DNA from: a virus
Lineage: Duplodnaviria > Caudoviricetes
IMG/VR virus record: IMGVR_UViG_3300025718_000006
Location: 1,916-65,915 of that record
Reading direction: 5' to 3' (one strand)
Length of the DNA stretch: 64,000 bases
The notes below the pieces were generated by a model, which worked only from the letters and a program-made list of their open reading frames with translations, did not search any database and was not told the DNA's origin. Shown piece after piece: positions 1,431 to 62,482 of the stretch. The translations under genes and the position numbers were made by a program. Every line of letters starts with the position of its first letter. Position 1 is the stretch's first letter.

Positions 1431-2960
1431 ATGGGAGAGCAAAAAATAATATTAGGGTTTGATGGTGGCATTAACGAATCTAAAGATCCACAATATTTAA
1501 AAGCAAACGAAGCTTGCGAATCTAAAAATTGTGATATTACTAAAGGTAACGTAAGTTTGTGTCAAGGATATTCGGCATTTAATCCGGCTTTTTTCGGAAC
1601 TTATGATGAAACTTTACGTATTGGCCTTATGTCGATATTTAGTTATTCAGATGCTACTTCAAACTCTTATAGTTCTAATGCAGATTATTCAAATGATATA
1701 GTCGGTGTCATAATAATTACTGATATGAAAGGTGAAAATTATATTTTAAATCAACAAGCCAATACATTTGTAAAGTTGTTAGATGATGATGTTGGAAATA
1801 ATAGTTCTGAAACAGATTCTATAAATTATCAATCTGGTGATGTGTTTATGACTATTATTACAAACAGATGGTCAGTGGTAAAAGTAATTGAACATCTTGA
1901 TATTACGCCAGGTGGCGTTGGTTCTAATAAAATCAGGAGACTAAAAAAAGATGGTAGCGGCTCTGTTATGTCTAGTGGTAATTCCGCACCACCGGCTCGT
2001 TATATTGAATTATTTAAAGAACGTTTGTGGTTGGCCGGTGGAAGTTTATTTAATACTGTATGGTTTTCTAAAGATTTTGATCCAGAAGACTTTACCATGC
2101 CAATAACCGAAGGCCAAGCCAATAGACATGGTGGTTTTGTAGAAATACCCACATGGGATAATGGCATTATTGTCGGTATTAAAGGTTTATTTGATGATAT
2201 TATCGTGTTTAAGACTAATAATGTTTACCGCATATACGGTAGTTCACCAATCAACTATACTGTGGCACAAATTGCAGACAATGTTCAAGGAGTAATAGTT
2301 AATAAGACGATCAGAAGTTTTAATACTGGTATATTTTTTGCAACAAATATGGGAATATTCCTCTTTGATGGTGTAAGTATAAAATATTTATCAGAAAAAA
2401 TTAAAGATGAATTTGAAGCTTTGCCAAGAGGTGAAGTTGATATGTCGGTAGCAGTTGCAATCATATTCAAACAAAAATATATTTTGGCAATCAAAGGGCC
2501 AGGATCAGTTTGGCGTAACAATGTCGTAATTGAATATGACATGATCCAAGATACTTTTATGATTAAACGAGGGTTCGAGGTTAATGATTTTTTAATTCAC
2601 AATAGTAAACTATTATTTATAAATAATGAAAATGTAGTGTTTGAATATGATGATTTAGTTTCAACATTTAATAATAAAGCAATTGATGCTACTTGGCATA
2701 CTGGTGATTTCACTTTTGGAGAATTAGATTTAAAAAAGAGCGTTCAATCATTGCATTTTGTAGCCAAAGGCACCGGATCTATTATTATAAGTGTTATTTC
2801 TGAAAAGAAAATTAAGACTAAAACAATAGCTTTAACTACTACATTTCAACCTTATAAAGTTAAACTTAAAAATAAAGGTAAGGTAATAAGCTTTAAATTC
2901 CAAAATGTTAGTGGTTCAGATTTCACAATTAAGCAAATAGAAGTTATATATTCAATTTAG
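1431..2960 (+). CDS. Tail nozzle/stabilisation protein (P22 gp10 / T7 gp12-like beta-propeller)
   Basis: 509 aa beta-rich; FDGGIN N-terminus, FKERLWLAG, VWFS...DPEDF and IVFKTNNVYRIYG motifs; follows the adaptors. Confidence 0.7.
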   Translation: MGEQKIILGFDGGINESKDPQYLKANEACESKNCDITKGNVSLCQGYSAFNPAFFGTYDETLRIGLMSIFSYSDATSNSYSSNADYSNDIVGVIIITDMKGENYILNQQANTFVKLLDDDVGNNSSETDSINYQSGDVFMTIITNRWSVVKVIEHLDITPGGVGSNKIRRLKKDGSGSVMSSGNSAPPARYIELFKERLWLAGGSLFNTVWFSKDFDPEDFTMPITEGQANRHGGFVEIPTWDNGIIVGIKGLFDDIIVFKTNNVYRIYGSSPINYTVAQIADNVQGVIVNKTIRSFNTGIFFATNMGIFLFDGVSIKYLSEKIKDEFEALPRGEVDMSVAVAIIFKQKYILAIKGPGSVWRNNVVIEYDMIQDTFMIKRGFEVNDFLIHNSKLLFINNENVVFEYDDLVSTFNNKAIDATWHTGDFTFGELDLKKSVQSLHFVAKGTGSIIISVISEKKIKTKTIALTTTFQPYKVKLKNKGKVISFKFQNVSGSDFTIKQIEVIYSI

Positions 2961-2970
2961 GGGTGATAAA

Positions 2971-3240
2971 ATGGCATTTGATAGATTTCTTAAAAATCAA
3001 ATAAGAGATACGTCACCACAGAGTTTAAAAATGTTAAACGATACTTTTGACTATCTATATCAACACTTAAATGAAACCTTAGACGTTAATAATGTAAGCA
3101 GTATAGATTTTATTAATCCGGATATATTTGACATAATTTATGAAAATACATTAACTGAAACGTACTATGTATCAAGGAATACAGAAGGATTTATTGATAA
3201 CCTTTCAGATGGTACTTTAGATATATCAATAACAAGATAA
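2971..3240 (+). CDS. Small tail protein sharing its N-terminal attachment segment with the downstream fibre
   Basis: FLKNQIRDTSPQSLKMLNDTFDYLYQHLN versus YVKNSIRDTTPNSLKLIEENIDYLYQNLN in the next ORF. Confidence 0.55.
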   Translation: MAFDRFLKNQIRDTSPQSLKMLNDTFDYLYQHLNETLDVNNVSSIDFINPDIFDIIYENTLTETYYVSRNTEGFIDNLSDGTLDISITR

Positions 3241-3253
3241 TGGAGGTATTTAG

Positions 3254-5053
3254 GTGAATAGATATGTTAAAAATTCAATAAGAGATACTACTCCTAATAG
3301 CTTAAAACTTATAGAAGAAAATATTGATTATTTGTATCAAAACTTAAATGGCATTAATCCAAAGAAAAAAATAATATCTATTAGCGTTGGTACAGAAGAT
3401 TATCCTACTGTTGGATATAGTGATGATACTTTTTTACATTTACAACTTATTAGGAACACCGAAAGGCTATTCATAGATAAAGCAGTGGATATTGATACAT
3501 TAGAAGAAGCTATTTTTAATCATTCTAGTAGGATTAAACCTGTACCAATTTTAGAACTTAAAGCTGATTTTTACGCTTCTGTTAGATCATTTGCTAGTGA
3601 TATTCCCACACACATGATTCAATTTAATATTGCTAGTGGCAATAACTCTGTATATGGAGATATTAATGGAACGTCATGCTTAAACTTTCACTTTGAAATG
3701 GTTAATGGAGAATACTATTTTAGGTATGAAATTACTCCTTTTACTTCCAGTACACCAGAATACCCAGATAATGAGTATACTTTTGGCGATATCGAAATAA
3801 ACGGATCTTCTTATAAAAAGTTTGTTCCGCTTAATGAAAAATTAATATATTTAACAGTTAATGTAGCCGGTAGGGCGTATCAAAACGATGTTGATGTTTC
3901 TTATTACACAGTAAATGTGGTCAATAATACAGATAGAATATTTTATTTTGGCACTGACGATTCTATAAGACCTAGATTTACTGGTGCAACTGCTCATGGT
4001 ATTGTCCACCAGGGTTTAGTTGGTGCGGGTGGAGTTCCAGCTAGAACAGAACTTATAAATTCTATACCTTTTATACCTTCCACACAAAGTAATTGTACTT
4101 GTTCGATGAATTGGTATTTACCGATAATAACTTATGATAATGTTGCATTATTCCAATATCCTTATAAGATTTCAATGAAAATAAAATGTCCGATGGTAGT
4201 TGATGGCTACACCTATGCAAAGGATGCAACAGAATTAATTATAGGCGATTCTGCGGTTACTGCTCCATATAAACTATTACAAAATTGTGTATATTATATT
4301 TATAGCAATAAAATATATAGAAAAAATATAGTATATAACACTAGTGTTACTTTGTACGCTTCGTTAGGTATAATATATGATTTTGCTATTTTAAACAACA
4401 ATGTATTTTCGTTAGAAAAAAGAAATAATGTATTTCAAATAGTCATATATGATATATCTCGCAGTTATGTAATAGCAACATTTTGCAACGGTGTTGTAAA
4501 TTTCTCACTTTACAACGGATATATTTACGCTATGAAAGATAACGGTTCTGGTGTAATAGGCTTATATAGATACACTCAAAGTGGTTCTGGTGAAATTTTG
4601 CTTACTACTATAGGACCAACTGCCACAACAGGTAAAGAAATAGAGATTGTAAATGGTGAGTTGTATTTTTGCAGATTTACAAGGTGGGAATATGATATAT
4701 ACCATCCTTTGCAAAGGTATGATACTCTTTATAAAATCAATTTAAGTACTTTAATTGAAACTAAAATTAACGATAACCCTTGGCTTACTATGAGCAGAGG
4801 AATTGTCATTAGAAATAATAATTATTATTTTGAGTATAGTAATATATATGGCATAAATGGCACTGAAAATTATGCTCATAAAATTGATTTAACTACTAAA
4901 AAACAGTTAACCGTTGATAACAGTTATACAAGTTGGAATGCTTATAATGTAATTCCGGTTTTCAACCGTATCTATCTTTTGGTTGAACAGGATAATTCTA
5001 AACGTCCTACTAAATTCTTTGGTCCACTTAAAAAAGCAGATTTAACATATTAA
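3254..5053 (+). CDS. Putative tail fibre/receptor-binding protein
   Basis: 599 aa, Tyr/Asn/beta-rich C-terminal half with propeller-like periodicity; located in the tail module; GGAGG RBS. Confidence 0.55.
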   Translation: MNRYVKNSIRDTTPNSLKLIEENIDYLYQNLNGINPKKKIISISVGTEDYPTVGYSDDTFLHLQLIRNTERLFIDKAVDIDTLEEAIFNHSSRIKPVPILELKADFYASVRSFASDIPTHMIQFNIASGNNSVYGDINGTSCLNFHFEMVNGEYYFRYEITPFTSSTPEYPDNEYTFGDIEINGSSYKKFVPLNEKLIYLTVNVAGRAYQNDVDVSYYTVNVVNNTDRIFYFGTDDSIRPRFTGATAHGIVHQGLVGAGGVPARTELINSIPFIPSTQSNCTCSMNWYLPIITYDNVALFQYPYKISMKIKCPMVVDGYTYAKDATELIIGDSAVTAPYKLLQNCVYYIYSNKIYRKNIVYNTSVTLYASLGIIYDFAILNNNVFSLEKRNNVFQIVIYDISRSYVIATFCNGVVNFSLYNGYIYAMKDNGSGVIGLYRYTQSGSGEILLTTIGPTATTGKEIEIVNGELYFCRFTRWEYDIYHPLQRYDTLYKINLSTLIETKINDNPWLTMSRGIVIRNNNYYFEYSNIYGINGTENYAHKIDLTTKKQLTVDNSYTSWNAYNVIPVFNRIYLLVEQDNSKRPTKFFGPLKKADLTY

Positions 5054-5231: not shown

Positions 5232-6155
5232 ATGGCAACGTCTTACGCAGAAAAGCTTAAATCATTTAATTCAGTGGCTACAAATGAAATCAATCCTCAA
5301 TATAATAGCAAAGTCACTGCTCTTAAAAATTCATTGGCAGCCAATAAACTAGCATTAACTAATCAAAAAACTGGTGTAAATCAAAATTATGATACACAAG
5401 TTGCTAATCAAAATATAAGTAACGATACCTCTAAAGGTAATTTTAGCGATTCTACTACAGATAGAGGACTTGGACGTAGTTCGGTTGCGGTTACTGGACT
5501 TGCGGAAATGGACCAGGTTAATAATAGATATGTTGGTGCTATAAATAGTAATAGAACAGGCGCACTTGGGCAAATAGATAGTAATATAGCTTTGGAAGAT
5601 TCTAATTTTAATAATACCTTTGCAACTATGGAAGCTGATAAGCAAACAGAAATTAATAATTTGGCACATACTTACGCAGATAAACAAGTTGCTACAGAAT
5701 ATCAAGCCGGAAGAGACAAAGTTGCGGATAATCAGTGGACTAGTACAAATAATTATAATATTGGTAGAGATAAAGTTGCGGATACACGTTATAATAATGA
5801 ACAAGCAACAGATAATTCGAGATACGCTCAAACATTAAAAGATTCGCAAGCTGCAACCGCAACCGATAATTCAAGATATAAATCAGAGCAAGCAACAGAT
5901 AATTCGAGATACCAGGATACTTTAAATACTGCAAGTGCAAAAGCTAAAGTTGCTGAAATTGATTCAAAAATAACTACAGTTGTTGATGATAGCAAGATTT
6001 ATTTTGGTGATAGAATTGATGCTTTAACTACACAAATGAACGCATATAATTCAATGGGTACGACTGATTCTAAATACTTGGTAGGTCAATTTAAAAAGGC
6101 GATAACTGCTATTAAGGCACAAGAAGCAGCATATATCAAGAAAGAACAATATTAA
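5232..6155 (+). CDS. Internal virion/DNA ejection protein with repeats
   Basis: 307 aa, Asn/Ala/Thr-rich and helical; GRDKVAD x2 and ATDNSRY x3 repeats; directly precedes the giant protein. Confidence 0.6.
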   Translation: MATSYAEKLKSFNSVATNEINPQYNSKVTALKNSLAANKLALTNQKTGVNQNYDTQVANQNISNDTSKGNFSDSTTDRGLGRSSVAVTGLAEMDQVNNRYVGAINSNRTGALGQIDSNIALEDSNFNNTFATMEADKQTEINNLAHTYADKQVATEYQAGRDKVADNQWTSTNNYNIGRDKVADTRYNNEQATDNSRYAQTLKDSQAATATDNSRYKSEQATDNSRYQDTLNTASAKAKVAEIDSKITTVVDDSKIYFGDRIDALTTQMNAYNSMGTTDSKYLVGQFKKAITAIKAQEAAYIKKEQY

Positions 6156-6178
6156 AATAATCCGTTTTGGAGGTTATT

Positions 6179-9100
6179 ATGGCAACTAAAAGAAAAAGCG
6201 CAGATAGTATTATGAAAGAATGGAATACTAATTATGTATCAAGCAATGAAGAAACAGAACACGTATATACGCCAGCTGAAACTGTTTTAAAGGAATGGAA
6301 CTCTAAATATGTACCTGCTAAAGTTCGGAAAAATGAGCCAGTTAGTGCTTCTCTTCCTAAGACAAGTTCAACATCAAATTCAGCAACACCAAACGCAAGT
6401 AAAACTTCTAAATTTGCTCAATCTCTTTATAAAGGATTTTCTGCTTTTGGTGATACTGAGGAAGAAAAAGCTGCTAAACTTGCTAAAGAAAAGGCTGATA
6501 AAGAAAAATCCGATAAATCAACTAAAGAAGCTATTGCAAAAACTCTAGCTAATTCAAAAGTATCAACTAAAATTAATCCGAATACAGGTAAAGCAGAAAT
6601 TGCTTTGCCTTACCTTAAAACTGACAATACTAATATGGTTAATAGCTCTGACAAAACAAATAATGCTACAAAATTACCGATGCTCAATAAAGATTATTTG
6701 AATGAAATATTACAACCTAAAAATCAGGTTAAAATAGCTGACGATAAAATAAACCAGGATGAAAATAAAATTACACCAATTAAAAAAGTTACCGGAACAC
6801 CTGCGGAAAATGATCCAGCTATGGCCATGAGTTATAGAGGTAAAAAGTTCTCAACAAAAGATATTAAAACCATGAATACTGAAATAGATAAAGAAACAAA
6901 CCCTTTCAAAAGAACTGCTCTTAAATTAACACAAAATTTAGGGTATATACTTGATACACCTGACAGAAATACATTTATAAACAGAACTTTAGAAACTGGA
7001 AGAAGTACTGCTACAGGTGGAGCTTATAAAAGTGAAGCTAAAACAACTGGTAATGTAGTAACTGATTTTGTAGCTGATATGATAGGTTCCGTTGGAGGGT
7101 TTAATAGTCTTTCAAATGCTGGCCTTAAATTAGGGCAAGTAGAAAATGCAGCCACTGGAACAATAGCAAAAGTAACCGGAAAAACTGCTGGAAATTATGC
7201 TACAAATAAAATAGCAAATAAAGCTATTGAATATGGTATTAAAGGAGCATCAACAGGAACAGAATTCGCTGGACTTAATGCAACTGAAACCGCTTTGCAA
7301 GGTGGAACATTAAAAGAAACCACAGATAGTGCTACTAAAGGATTTTTAAGTGGTGCAATATGGGGAATGGGTGGTAAAGCTCTAGGAGAAACTTCTAAAT
7401 ATGTTAAAACTGAATTGCCAAAAGTTGTATTGAAGAAAAAAGGATATGTAGAAGTTGTTCCAGATACCGGCTATTGGGTAAAATATTCAGAAACACCAAC
7501 CAATAGTACCTCAGTAGGAAAAGTAAAACCTAGTATTGACAGTGTATTCATGGAACATTCTAATTTTGTTGATGCTAATGGAAATAAAGTTCCTAAATGG
7601 CAAATTAAATTAACAGAAGCGTTGGAAACTGCTAAGAATAAAGATGAAATTGCCAATATTATAGATGGGTACCAAAAAGGAATGAATCAAGTTCCAAAAT
7701 TAAACTCTAGTAATCCTGTTAATGCTACAACTCCTGAAACTAATTTAGGCGGTTTAAATGCTGTTACACCGGTTAGTAATCCCAAATTTGATATTTCTAA
7801 GATCGTTACAGTAAAAGGTATGGGAGATTTAACGGTAATAAGTAAACAAAAAGGTAAAATTAGTTTAAAGGATGAAAGCGGTAGTATTATTAATATGTCT
7901 GAAAATGATTTATCACAATTATCAGATGAAGGTAAATATGATATGCCTAAAAATGAAGATATTCCTCAGGATCAAATTAACTTTATGGAAAATGGCGATT
8001 TCGATATGGCTCAAGGCCTTGCAGATATTTCAAATGAATTAGAAAAAATTCCTCAATCAAGTGATATTATGGAATCAACTAAGCAAAAAGTTATTGCAAT
8101 CAATAGAAATAACGCTAACAGAGTGTTGAGCGCAGTAGAAGCACAGAATACTAAGGCCACAGAGACTATGCCACAAGCAGCTGATAATAAAGATATAATT
8201 AGTACACCTCAAACTAATATTCAACAGAACGGAAGTAATGAGGGTTTAAATACTATGGAGGATATTTATAATAGTAATAGAAATGTTCCTATAGAAAATC
8301 AACAACCAAGTAATGCTAGTGAGTTACAACAGAACATACCTCAGAACGTCACTAACCAAGAGTTAGATAATTCTAATGTAAATGTACCTTTAACTGAAAA
8401 CATTCAACAAAACGTTGATAACAGTGGATTAGATCATATTGCCGACGTCAGCAAAATGGTAGCTACTGATAGCAATGGAATTTCTGATAGCCAAGAAGTT
8501 AAAGCGGTAAATGTAAAGTCTATCGGTGTTGATCCTCAGAGATTTCAATTTAAAGCTGATACCAATAATTCTACAGGCACCGGAGAAAAACTTACAGGAA
8601 CAGAAAAATTTGATAAAAATAAAGCTGGTGTTGTTACAGTGTGGCAAGATAACCAGGGTAAAGCCTGGGTAGTTAATGGCCATCACAGAGTAGAGCTTGC
8701 TAATAGGACTAATACAGAGAATGTGAATGCAATAGTCTTAAAAGAGAGTGACGGAATTAGTGATAAACAAGCCAGGACAATTGGAGCATTGCAAAATATA
8801 GGTGAAGGAATGGGAACGCCTAAAGATGCTGCACAAGTATTCAAAGAAAATAATTATACATTGGAAGATTTAAAAGATACTGGATTATCTACTAAAGATA
8901 AATTTGTTGAACAAGGATATAATATATCAAAACTAAACGATAGGCTATACCAACATGTAACAAACGAGAATTTAAGCTATGATAAAGCTTCTATAATTGG
9001 TAAAGCATTTCCAAATGTATCAAAGGAAAACGATGCTAACCAAAATGCGGTTATGGATTATATACAAGAAAATAATCCGAATAAGAATGAACTTACAGAA

Positions 9101-57258: not shown

Positions 57259-57533
57259 TGAATAAGTTAGAAAAGTTAGAAAGATGTTTTGATACCGCAA
57301 TAGAAACTAATCAAAAATTTATAGGCATTTTGATTGAAACTAAAGGTTCGCCTAAAGCAGAATTGATTATAAACGAACGTGAAAACTTTGAAATAAAATT
57401 AGCTTATTATAAAAAGGTTTATGATGAAAACTTAGTTCTTAAAACTTTTAATGGTATTAAGATAATTGGTTATGCAATGGGTGATGATATTAACAACATG
57501 TATGATTACTTAAAACAGGTATCAATTAATTGA
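57258..57533 (+). CDS. Conserved Firmicute-phage small protein
   Basis: ELIIN..ENF..KLAYYKK.YDENL.LK.FNGIKI. Confidence 0.65.
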   Translation: MNKLEKLERCFDTAIETNQKFIGILIETKGSPKAELIINERENFEIKLAYYKKVYDENLVLKTFNGIKIIGYAMGDDINNMYDYLKQVSIN

Positions 57534-57817
57534 ATATACCTACTACTGTAAAAATAGGTGGTCATATTATTGATGTTGTATTTACTAACAATTGTGATGA
57601 AATCAGTTTTGATGAAATTGGAAAAACTATATTAGCTAAAAACATAATTAGAATAAATACTAACTACCCTAAGAGCAGACAAGAAGAATGTTTGTTACAT
57701 GAGTTAGTACATAACTGCTTATATGATTTACACGAAGAACAAGATGAAGCTATGGTCGAAAGATTAGGTACTATGTTTTATGCGATCATAAAAGATAATC
57801 CGAATATATTTAAATAA
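57530..57817 (+). CDS. Small HExxH metalloprotein
   Basis: LLHELVH...E..V.RL. Confidence 0.65.
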   Translation: MNIPTTVKIGGHIIDVVFTNNCDEISFDEIGKTILAKNIIRINTNYPKSRQEECLLHELVHNCLYDLHEEQDEAMVERLGTMFYAIIKDNPNIFK

Positions 57818-61064: not shown

Positions 61065-62018
61065 GTGATAAAATTGATAATTAAAGCTACCGCGGGAAAA
61101 ATAGATTTAGCTATTGGCAGATTTGAAGGACCTTTAATGGCCTATATGATTAAGGAGGAAGCAGATTTTGCGGCTGACTCATTACTTAAAGAATTTTACA
61201 CGGTTCAAAACTCTAAACATTATTCAGAATCCATCGGAGGAATGACCGGTATCGGTGAATTTGAAATGACAGATGCAGAGGTGCCATTTGAAGGTATGGA
61301 AGAAGGATATACTAAAACTTTCGTACCAGAGGTATTTAAGAAAGGTATTTCCATTAAAAGGGAAACAATAGACGATTCACAATTAATTGATATGAAAAAT
61401 CAAGCTGCTAATCTTATGGATAGTGCTAACAGAACAAAAGAAAAATTTGTTCATTTACCTTTTAACTTCTGTACTGCTGATTCTTACAAAACTGTTAATG
61501 GTAAAGAATATTCATTACTTGGAGCTGATGGTAAATGTCTAGTATCTGCTACACATCCTTCAAAGACTAAGAAAGGTAAAGTACAAAGTAATTCTACAGT
61601 ATTTGCACTTACACCTGAAAATCTTACTTTAGTTGAAAATATGTTCAAGAACTTTGTAACTGATAGTGGTATTAAAGGTAATTTCAAAATGGATACACTT
61701 GTTATTCCTTTCGAGTTAAGAGACATTGCTTGGGAAATTCTTGGAACACCTAATGGACTTGGAACACCTAATGGCAACGTAAATGCTAAATTCTCTAAGT
61801 ATAAATTAATAATTTCTGATTACTTGGATGATGCTAAAGGCTGGTATGGTGTGGATTCTCGTAGCATGAAGAAAAATCTTTTCTGGATAGATAGAACAGA
61901 ATTAGAAACTAAGTCATGGGTAGACCTAAATACTGACAATTGGATGATTAGAGGATATATGAGGTTTAGCAATGGTTTCAATGATTGGAGATGGATCATA
62001 GGTAATAAACCAGTTTAA
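61065..62018 (+). CDS. Major capsid protein (Mu gpT-like HK97 fold)
   Basis: FKKGISI.RETIDD, LL..DG..L.SA.HP, LVIP..L...A.EI, W....R.....W...RG..RFS.GF.DWRWI.G; the start may be TTG 61074. Confidence 0.85.
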   Translation: MIKLIIKATAGKIDLAIGRFEGPLMAYMIKEEADFAADSLLKEFYTVQNSKHYSESIGGMTGIGEFEMTDAEVPFEGMEEGYTKTFVPEVFKKGISIKRETIDDSQLIDMKNQAANLMDSANRTKEKFVHLPFNFCTADSYKTVNGKEYSLLGADGKCLVSATHPSKTKKGKVQSNSTVFALTPENLTLVENMFKNFVTDSGIKGNFKMDTLVIPFELRDIAWEILGTPNGLGTPNGNVNAKFSKYKLIISDYLDDAKGWYGVDSRSMKKNLFWIDRTELETKSWVDLNTDNWMIRGYMRFSNGFNDWRWIIGNKPV

Positions 62019-62023
62019 TTAAT

Positions 62024-62055
62024 AGGGAGGGCGATTGCTCTTCCTTTATTTTTTT
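62024..62055 (+). terminator. Capsid operon terminator
   Basis: AGGGAGGGC/GCTCTTCCT plus T-run. Confidence 0.7.
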
Positions 62056-62097
62056 AATATTTTTCTAAATGTTATATAAAAGAATGGAGGATTTAAT

Positions 62098-62343
62098 ATG
62101 ATTAAAACAGGTATTATTTCAGCAACAATAACCGAGAGTGCGACTGCTATAGATAGTGATCTTTCTTCAACTTTAATAATTACGTCTGATACTGATTGTA
62201 TGATAAGTATTAACGACAATTTACATTATCAATTATATAAATCTGGTGAAATGCTTCCATTGCAAGACCGTAAAGGAACGTTTGATAATTTATATTGTAA
62301 ATCGGTTAGTGGTACTTCGATAGTGCGATATTGGTTAATGTAA
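62098..62343 (+). CDS. Small beta-rich structural protein
   Basis: 81 aa; GGAGG RBS. Confidence 0.55.
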   Translation: MIKTGIISATITESATAIDSDLSSTLIITSDTDCMISINDNLHYQLYKSGEMLPLQDRKGTFDNLYCKSVSGTSIVRYWLM

Positions 62344-62482
62344 TGAAAAAGATTATGGATATTAAATTAATGAGTTTAATATTAAAAAATAATAAAAATA
62401 GTAATGTAGTAGTAGGTCCAAAGACTATTAGAATAGGTAGTCAAAAAATTGGTACTTTCTTAATAGGAGGGGTGGTTGAATA

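Follow-up and report, generated by a model that had tools for sequence, protein, structure and literature searches.

A giant polyvalent protein gene with a conserved helical C-terminal module, probably encoding an ejected virion protein, in a phage contig with plasmid-like genes

We analysed a 64,000-nt window (bases 1916-65915) of the 65,915-bp viral contig IMGVR_UViG_3300025718_000006, which has a G + C content of ~30% throughout, and describe a giant gene (6179..17440, + strand) whose product is a phage polyvalent protein that is probably packaged in the capsid as the largest internal (ejection) protein. The open reading frame (ORF) listing of the window gives a single stop-free frame on the + strand at 6167..17440; 11.3 kb without stops at 30% G + C rules out a chance frame. 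The probable start is the ATG at 6179, 6 nt downstream of a GGAGG ribosome-binding site (6169-6173), giving a product of 3753 amino acids (aa) and a stop codon at 17440. The first-pass annotation of this DNA had recognized the ORF, which is real, and its length of 3757 aa is a count from an upstream TTG at 6167. The product has a sole cysteine and long linkers rich in Asn, Gln, Ser and Thr at aa ~450-765 and ~1110-1240. Promoter and terminator scans at both ends of the gene gave nothing exceeding shuffled sequences.

The giant gene is the final gene of a podovirus-like structural operon and is followed by lysis genes. Upstream, an SU10-adaptor-like gene (873-1418) is followed by a 509-aa gene (1431-2960) with matches to PHROG families of 'internal virion protein' and 'virion structural protein', by a gene of 599 aa and by the DUF7934 gene (307 aa; 5232..6155, + strand), which ends 23 nt before the giant. 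Downstream are an endolysin gene with GH25 and SH3_3 domains (18054) and then a replication initiator. The earlier placement of the giant at the ejection-protein position was borne out: adaptor-like and internal-virion-like genes precede it and the endolysin gene follows. Relatives carry their giants in the equivalent slot: locus L003 in a podovirus-type module with a P22-type portal, and loci L001, L002 and L142 before holin/lysin genes.

The N-terminal conserved region (6566..7528, + strand; aa 130-450) has a Gly-rich, weakly hydrophobic core at aa 266-415. A protein-atlas search with aa 130-460 yielded nothing beyond viral clusters without a name and leads below threshold (LPD22, PT-TG and a P22 gp16 domain at 0.88), and a profile of the Gly-rich region gave only non-significant matches to other giants, though clustered at aa ~200-400, which is suggestive only. 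In the closest relative, L001, DUF7934 occurs twice, as a separate upstream gene (L001:1094-1933, 63% identity) and as a copy fused as the N-terminus of the giant (L001:1963-2775, 47%), where it makes up the first ~270 aa of a 3983-aa protein; two DUF7934 copies are also found in L070. The fused second copy in L001 constitutes a Rosetta-stone link that ties DUF7934 functionally to the giant.

A ParB/Srx-like domain with a helical extension (8480..9508, + strand; aa 768-1110) follows and includes the motifs DPQRFQFK (aa 785) and VNGHHR (aa 832-837). This block matches PHROG phrog_21 (E 6.5e-33) and is common to 73 IMG/VR loci. When a 35-sequence profile of the block was compared with the PDB, Helicobacter ParB (4umk, E 8.8e-6), Caulobacter ParB (6t1f), Bacillus Spo0J (6sdk) and 7bnr were retrieved, and the invariant N-G-H-x-R of the block (NGHHR here) aligned to the GERR arginine motif of solved ParBs. 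On sequence grounds, membership of the ParB/Srx superfamily is secure and membership of the Pfam ddrB-ParB family is excluded.

Between this domain and the next enzyme-type domain lies a Lys/Glu-rich linker (10331..10774, + strand) with two copies of a ~30-aa motif, at aa ~1385-1415 (10331-10423) and aa ~1502-1532 (10682-10774). The motif, E-x-H-x2-A-x3-AI-x2-GK-x-V-x2-x-V/L-x2-Y (…ExH..A…AI..GK.V..EVL.DYP…), is repeated two to six times in the unrelated proteins P0028, P0030, P0036 and P0038-P0042 (phmmer), and in P0034 (L150) it comes after the ADP-ribosyltransferase (ART) domain.

The ART-like domain itself (10811..11338, + strand; aa ~1545-1720) is marked by Y-R-G (R1564), K-Y-Y (Y1583) and L-E-F-A-V-F (E1708). 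In an exhaustive phmmer search with aa 1500-1960, six giants matched aa ~1535-1724, including the Pfam-validated ART-PolyVal domain of P0032 (E 1.2e-5). A profile of the new subfamily, from which all Pfam-validated sequences were kept out, was aligned by hhalign with a profile of three validated ART-PolyVal domains and scored a probability of 98.5% (E 2.9e-15). An AlphaFold model of aa 1535-1960 had a mean pLDDT of 69, with the ART part mostly at 65-92. Foldseek matched the ART model to AcrIF11 (6kyf, E 4e-3, probability 1.0), MbcT, diphtheria toxin, tankyrase, PARP1 and NatT, and VIA-align gave Z scores of 6.2 for AcrIF11, 6.1 for NatT, 6.0 for MbcT and 5.5 for ParT over 112-128 residues; these scores are middling, and consistent. 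In both aligners ART enzymes were the best domain-covering fold matches. The comparisons of sequence profiles identify the domain as a divergent ART-PolyVal subfamily. A single-sequence scan of IMG/VR with the ART region was empty, and an alignment-based scan added only locus L146, whose encoded protein is that of L142.

In ART-PolyVal domains, of the Tox-ART-HYD2 clade, the active site is composed of H in strand 1, Y in strand 2 and D in strand 5 (PMC5512222). The catalytic H-Y-D is replaced here by R1564, Y1583 and E1708, and Y-R-G stands for Y-H-G across the subfamily. R and E serve other ART clades, so we regard these positions as a variant rather than a sign of inactivity.

The ART-region model matched, in addition, chain B of the cyanophage A4 pre-ejectosome (9k3a_B; Foldseek E 0.027, probability 0.95; VIA-align Z 7.8 but rmsd 25.6). 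This model-based match hints that the solved A4 ejection protein has an ART-like domain; the published text does not mention ADP-ribosylation.

Downstream of the ART-like domain is a beta-rich domain (11501..11953, + strand; aa ~1775-1925; model pLDDT 70-94) that could be assigned to no family. No fold match to it was visible by Foldseek or VIA-align, the VIA-align list being filled by the long C-terminal helix of the model. Its stand-alone homologues are a 222-aa protein beside TraC/TraG-like conjugation genes (L148) and one of 302 aa in the neighbourhood of PLD-nuclease and Uma2 genes (L147).

The methyltransferase (MTase) module (11972..14188, + strand; aa 1932-2670) consists of a charged helical N-terminal part and a class-I amino-MTase core at aa ~2495-2670. 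Pfam MTS matched aa 2520-2616 with 26.7-30.9 bits, above its cut-off of 23, and motifs I (LEPSAGTGHI) and IV (NPPF, aa 2585) are both intact, with conservation in seven relatives. The N6-adenine MTase that had been placed at ~13670-14175 is thereby confirmed. PHROG phrog_15406 'DNA methyltransferase' covers aa 1973-2670 (E 4.7e-140), and the block at aa 1932-2666 is 81.5% identical over 735 aa to that of L001/P0003 (BLAST). A family profile retrieved MJ0882, KsgA/Dim1, ErmC', the DNA adenine MTases 7vru and TaqI and type I M subunits from the PDB, and whole-protein phmmer against the PDB gave only a weak KsgA match. By its motifs and profile matches the module is an amino (N6-adenine-type) class-I MTase, the substrate of which would be DNA or RNA.

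The remainder of the protein is an all-helical C-terminal module (14396..17437, + strand; aa 2740-3753), hereafter the C-module, which is the most widely shared block of the giant in BLAST and tblastn searches. It is composed of aa 2740-2900, a lineage-specific insert at ~2900-3120 and a core at 3138-3750 that features RISMLFNP, PFAKTPAN, a Gly-rich helix (3442-3465) and an acidic cluster. Although a single-sequence IMG/VR scan with the C-terminus gave no matches, an alignment-based scan recovered the C-module in 63 IMG/VR loci, and a further 52 loci were found in GTDB genomes. Every GTDB carrier is a Bacillota-type bin or isolate (Clostridiaceae, Clostridia, Christensenella, uncultured Bacilli, Paenibacillus, Cohnella and Oscillospiraceae), and the cultivable carriers include prophages of Christensenella hongkongensis HKU16, Paenibacillus macerans and Cohnella.

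The C-terminus had been called LPD38-like at first pass. No Pfam family, LPD38 included, matched any of 39 C-module members. We compared the C-module by hhalign with a profile of the LPD38-bearing C-termini of phi24B, Vibrio phage D80, Ralstonia PY045S1, BcepIL02 and Bacteroides BKO1-TP3, which gave a probability of 0.7%. The trimmed cores scored 24.6 (P 0.02), a value reached by none of 60 column shuffles (15.2 +/- 2.1), but a reversed control came close with 21.3. A permissive alignment has collinear landmarks, namely PFAKTPAN against NAAiQGTAN, a Gly-rich helix followed by a DDD cluster, and a PT..K motif. From these alignments a remote relationship of the C-module to LPD38 appears at most marginal.

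The predicted structure of the C-module (1014 residues) is all-helical with a mean pLDDT of 62.6, rising to 70-90 over aa ~3140-3753. Searches of the PDB with this model (Foldseek and VIA-wide) gave only generic helical matches (Z <= 7.4) and no nameable solved fold, which is not proof of a new fold, and the C-module profile gave only spurious matches to PDB sequences. Structural matching, which had been proposed at first pass as a check of the domains, accordingly came out positive for the ART model against ART enzymes and negative for the C-module against solved structures. Among the predicted structures of BFVD, Foldseek matched the C-module to C-terminal pieces of other polyvalent proteins (E 1e-34 to 1e-21) and to the 'internal virion protein' of Pelagibacter phage EXVC018P and of Synechococcus phages S-RIP1, S-CBP3 and S-CBP2 (E 5e-15 to 1e-9).

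BLAST comparisons show that the giant is a mosaic, in which aa 128-1234 are common to P0003, P0004, P0005 and P0007 and the C-module is common to ~20 other giants that lack its middle part. A 1429-aa relative (L005) consists of the Gly-rich N-terminal region (37-38% identity to aa 266-415) and the C-module (67-69%) with no enzyme blocks (tblastn). The cargo identified by Pfam in 21 further C-module relatives includes ART-PolyVal (6), LPD23 (5), MuF_C (3), nucleotidyltransferase (2), ParB_N (2), PBECR3, DUF3990 and LPD3. Across module-sharing relatives, the polyvalent Pfam families are ART-PolyVal, LPD23, LPD3, MuF_C, PBECR3 and DarA_C, and most of the relatives have a nearly invariant HExTHD zincin-type motif. 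By sequence comparison, then, the family keeps its frame constant and exchanges its cargo.

The terminase (51762), portal (54658), major capsid protein (61065) and collagen-like fibre (62483) genes lie toward the right window end. The structural module is divided between the contig ends, with the capsid and fibre genes on one side (61065-63793), the adaptor gene on the other (from 873) and 1915 bases preceding the window; IMG/VR classes the contig as linear and CheckV estimates its completeness at 74%. The genome may be permuted or incomplete. A 95-aa ORF (57530-57817) between the portal and scaffold genes has an HExxH motif (LLHELVHN), and its product could, judging from this motif, be a trans-acting processing peptidase. 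The best INPHARED identity of the portal is only 27%, which makes the phage distant from every described one. Searches for near-identical DNA and tblastn searches with the giant gene and its C-terminus found no matches in INPHARED phages or PLSDB plasmids. Pfam also identified an actin-like ParM (ALP_N; 26683-27585), a type IV coupling protein (T4CP; T4SS-DNA_transf, E 4e-49; 29440-30876) and a Mob_Pre relaxase (E 9e-29; 31376-32356) on the contig, and ParM and T4CP are present in L001 as well. With these three genes, and with the nearest genome-borne relatives in metagenome-assembled genomes of Clostridia and Bacilli, the 'clostridial phage-plasmid' of the first-pass annotation is plausible on indirect support. 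The host is probably a Firmicute.

That the giant is one of the large polyvalent proteins defined by Iyer et al. (2017) is well supported by three unrelated enzyme-type domains in one chain, by its late virion operon in a portal-terminase phage and by the polyvalent Pfam families in relatives that share its modules. The ORF, its position, the superfamily-level identities of its domains and the modular structure of its family are seen directly, whereas packaging, any processing, ejection, enzyme activity, substrates and any role as a membrane conduit are inferred. In the mechanism we propose, the giant would exit the capsid via the tail together with the DNA. Its frame would be the N-terminal Gly-rich region plus the ~1000-aa helical C-module, and its cargo would be a ParB/Srx-like NTP-binding or nicking domain, a divergent ART-PolyVal ADP-ribosyltransferase and an N6-adenine-type MTase. 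Once ejected, the cargo would act prior to phage transcription: the MTase would modify the incoming DNA, following the anti-restriction logic of P1 DarB, or possibly RNA; the target of the ART would be a host protein or nucleic acid; and the role of the ParB-like domain would be to bind or nick nucleic acid or to sense NTPs. Delivery before phage gene expression is suggested by the gene position, by the BFVD matches of the C-module and, by analogy, by the virion proteomics of comparable giants. Polyvalent proteins have been predicted to be injected (PMC5512222). CsCl-purified virions yielded 51 unique peptides of JC1 gp69, a 4515-aa DarB-like podovirus protein whose gene immediately precedes the lysis module (PMC9144972), and phi24B gp47, an LPD-bearing protein of 2811 aa, is abundant in virions and is a proposed ejection protein (bioRxiv 10.64898/2026.04.10.717836). 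N4 packages and ejects an enzyme of ~3500 residues, vRNAP (PMC13434306), and in cyanophage A4 large enzyme-bearing ejection proteins are packed around the portal axis (PMC12002296).

Several observations weigh against this interpretation. The Pfam ParB_N (PF02195) and ddrB-ParB (PF18763) hidden Markov models (HMMs) had no match at E <= 10, the ParB_N control having matched 11/14 genomes, and the ParB-like domain reported at ~8500-8900 stands at the superfamily level, through the family profile matches to ParB and Spo0J structures. The Pfam ART-PolyVal (PF18760) HMM had no match at E <= 5 in the giant or at E <= 10 in the genome; the ART-like domain reported at ~10850-11330 is upheld by profile-profile and fold comparison and missed by this model. 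With Arg in place of the strand-1 His in the ART subfamily, activity cannot be assumed. No SF2 helicase (SWI2/SNF2 or other) that could partner the MTase was present in whole-protein and segment-wise Pfam scans or in PHROGs, and the solved structures nearest to the MTase include rRNA methyltransferases alongside DNA adenine MTases. Neither an HExxH/zincin peptidase, in spite of the HExTHD motif of most relatives, nor a peptidoglycan hydrolase was found anywhere in the giant. The LPD38 (PF18857) HMM had no match in the whole genome at E <= 10 (control phi24B gp48, E 8.5e-49), and with none in the giant or in its 39 relatives the LPD38-like label is not supported as a family assignment; a conserved helical C-module exists nonetheless. 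This module matched none of the solved T7 ejection proteins or A4 ejectosome chains, and its link to ejection proteins comes from matches of predicted to predicted structures with modest TM-scores (0.3-0.54). Hydrophobic segments are weak, the best being aa 3447-3465 (Kyte-Doolittle 1.29), and sequence alone gives no support for the channel role that had been suggested. Finally, packaging is something we infer for the giant and for every other member of the C-module family.

Some of these same observations would be expected if the giant were mainly a structural ejectosome or internal-core protein, whose enzyme-like domains are decayed or are non-catalytic spacers that add mass or length or bind DNA in the capsid. 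The ParB, ART and C-terminal parts are missed by Pfam HMMs, the ART has Arg where ART-PolyVal has His, and the linkers are long and of low complexity. The retention of the frame in the enzyme-free relative also suggests that the frame is the essential part, and the large ejection proteins of cyanophage A4 bind DNA within the capsid (PMC12002296). However, MTase motifs I and IV are intact and the module is strongly conserved with L001, and the GHxR motif of the ParB block and the R/Y/E positions of the ART are conserved across their families. Cargo turnover among relatives, moreover, is the expectation for effectors under conflict-driven selection, and we consider a mainly structural giant unlikely. 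It is less likely still that the giant belongs to the tail exterior (as a giant fibre, a needle or an analogue of the tape measure) or is made late without entering the virion, and so is neither internal nor ejected. The distal end of a structural module, beside lysis genes, is the fibre-gene site in many phages, and a place inside the capsid is only probable for the giant. Against an external location, the giant has no fibre-like repeats and no collagen or beta-helix signatures, its C-module model is all-helical and matches internal virion proteins, and a separate collagen-like fibre gene is present. A cytoplasmic-type enzyme cargo (MTase, ART and ParB) would also make no sense outside the cell.

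The plasmid-like genes raise the question of whether the giant is delivered, also or instead, via a helper type IV secretion system (T4SS) during transfer of a mobilisable plasmid, in the manner of the polyvalent proteins of conjugative elements. T4CP, the relaxase and ParM on the same contig, and the conservation of T4CP and ParM in the closest relative, would fit such a route, as would the TraC/TraG-like neighbours of the stand-alone beta-rich homologue; ~40% of polyvalent proteins are in conjugative elements (PMC5512222). The giant, though, is within the virion operon, 23 nt after a structural gene and ~12 kb from T4CP, and the C-module is found in many phages whose fetched flanks show no sign of conjugation genes (L003, L142). 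No T4SS signal is known, and we give conjugative delivery very little weight. Packaging in the capsid followed by ejection through the tail is the reading that we prefer.

Under this preferred reading, we tentatively raise a further hypothesis, to which we do not commit: the Gly-rich N-terminal region and the C-module might form a single-chain ejection scaffold specific to Firmicute podovirus-like phages, with arbitrary effector cassettes inserted between its ends, as the functional counterpart of the LPD38-ended giants of Gram-negative podoviruses and of T7 gp15/gp16. If true, the scaffold family would be a natural modular chassis for protein delivery into Gram-positive cells, here possibly open to virion and conjugative routes alike. 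Phages are predicted to use polyvalent proteins as a first-strike arsenal, which has hardly been tested, and the experimental hints are nearly all from Gram-negative systems (P1 Dar, N4 vRNAP, Bcep22/JC1 and phi24B). A constant C-module with changing cargo provides a handle on the needs of packaging and ejection across a Gram-positive envelope and on the roles of the cargo, and the divergent ART-PolyVal and ParB-like subfamilies are useful for annotation. The giant reveals no new principle.

The closest parallel among known systems is with the phage polyvalent proteins surveyed by Iyer, Burroughs, Anand, de Souza and Aravind in 2017 (PMC5512222), which likewise join unrelated enzyme domains (ART, adenine methylase and ParB-superfamily) in one late-virion giant of a portal-terminase phage. 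Unlike them, the present giant has no polyvalent-specific Pfam match, zincin MPTase or SF2 helicase, and its C-module has no Pfam family. ART, adenine methylase and ParB domains are all listed in that survey among polyvalent-protein domains (PMC5512222), and the suggestion that the domain combination may be undescribed was therefore overstated; the exact set and the C-terminal family are a variant.

JC1 gp69, Bcep22 gp75 and P1 DarB resemble the giant in being products of the largest virion-module gene, just upstream of lysis genes, and in carrying an MTase with the anti-restriction logic of methylating incoming DNA. The Bcep22-like DarB giants have a methylase-helicase dyad and an LPD38-containing end, whereas our giant has no helicase and a C-module that is not detectably LPD38, and their hosts are Gram-negative in contrast to the probable Firmicute host here. 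The gp47 of phi24B/933W (2811 aa; LPD5, LPD1, MuF_C and LPD38) is likewise a podovirus giant polyvalent protein with a conserved C-terminal module, but it has no domain in common with our giant, and the C-modules compare at only 0.7% by profile-profile alignment. Despite its abundance in virions, phi24B gp47 is invisible in cryo-EM (bioRxiv 10.64898/2026.04.10.717836). In a side observation, the LPD38-bearing C-terminus of phi24B/933W gp47 (L151:36046-37569; L210-L213) was found to be common to 'DarB-like' giants of Bcep22/BcepIL02, Ralstonia phages, ~100 Vibrio phage records and a Bacteroides phage (16.7-kb coding sequence). This C-terminus is a Gram-negative counterpart of our constant C-module.

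With the T7-like internal virion proteins (gp15/gp16 class) the giant shares a slot after adaptor and nozzle genes. The predicted fold of its C-module matches predicted 'internal virion proteins' from podophages of Pelagibacter and Synechococcus, and N4 vRNAP is a precedent for a packaged, ejected enzyme of ~3500 aa (PMC13434306). It differs from both in having no match of its C-module to a solved T7 or A4 chain, no lytic transglycosylase and no RNA polymerase. The domain types, and giant virion proteins at an equivalent position (by proteomics, in other podoviruses), were thus already known. What is new is a large Firmicute-phage family (>100 relatives) that is defined by a C-module for which there is no Pfam model, together with a minimal enzyme-free form that reveals the frame-plus-cargo design and divergent ParB-like and ART subfamilies that lie beyond current HMMs. 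New as well are a methylase with no helicase, a chain with no peptidase, and the presence of the giant in one element together with genes for plasmid partition and mobilisation.

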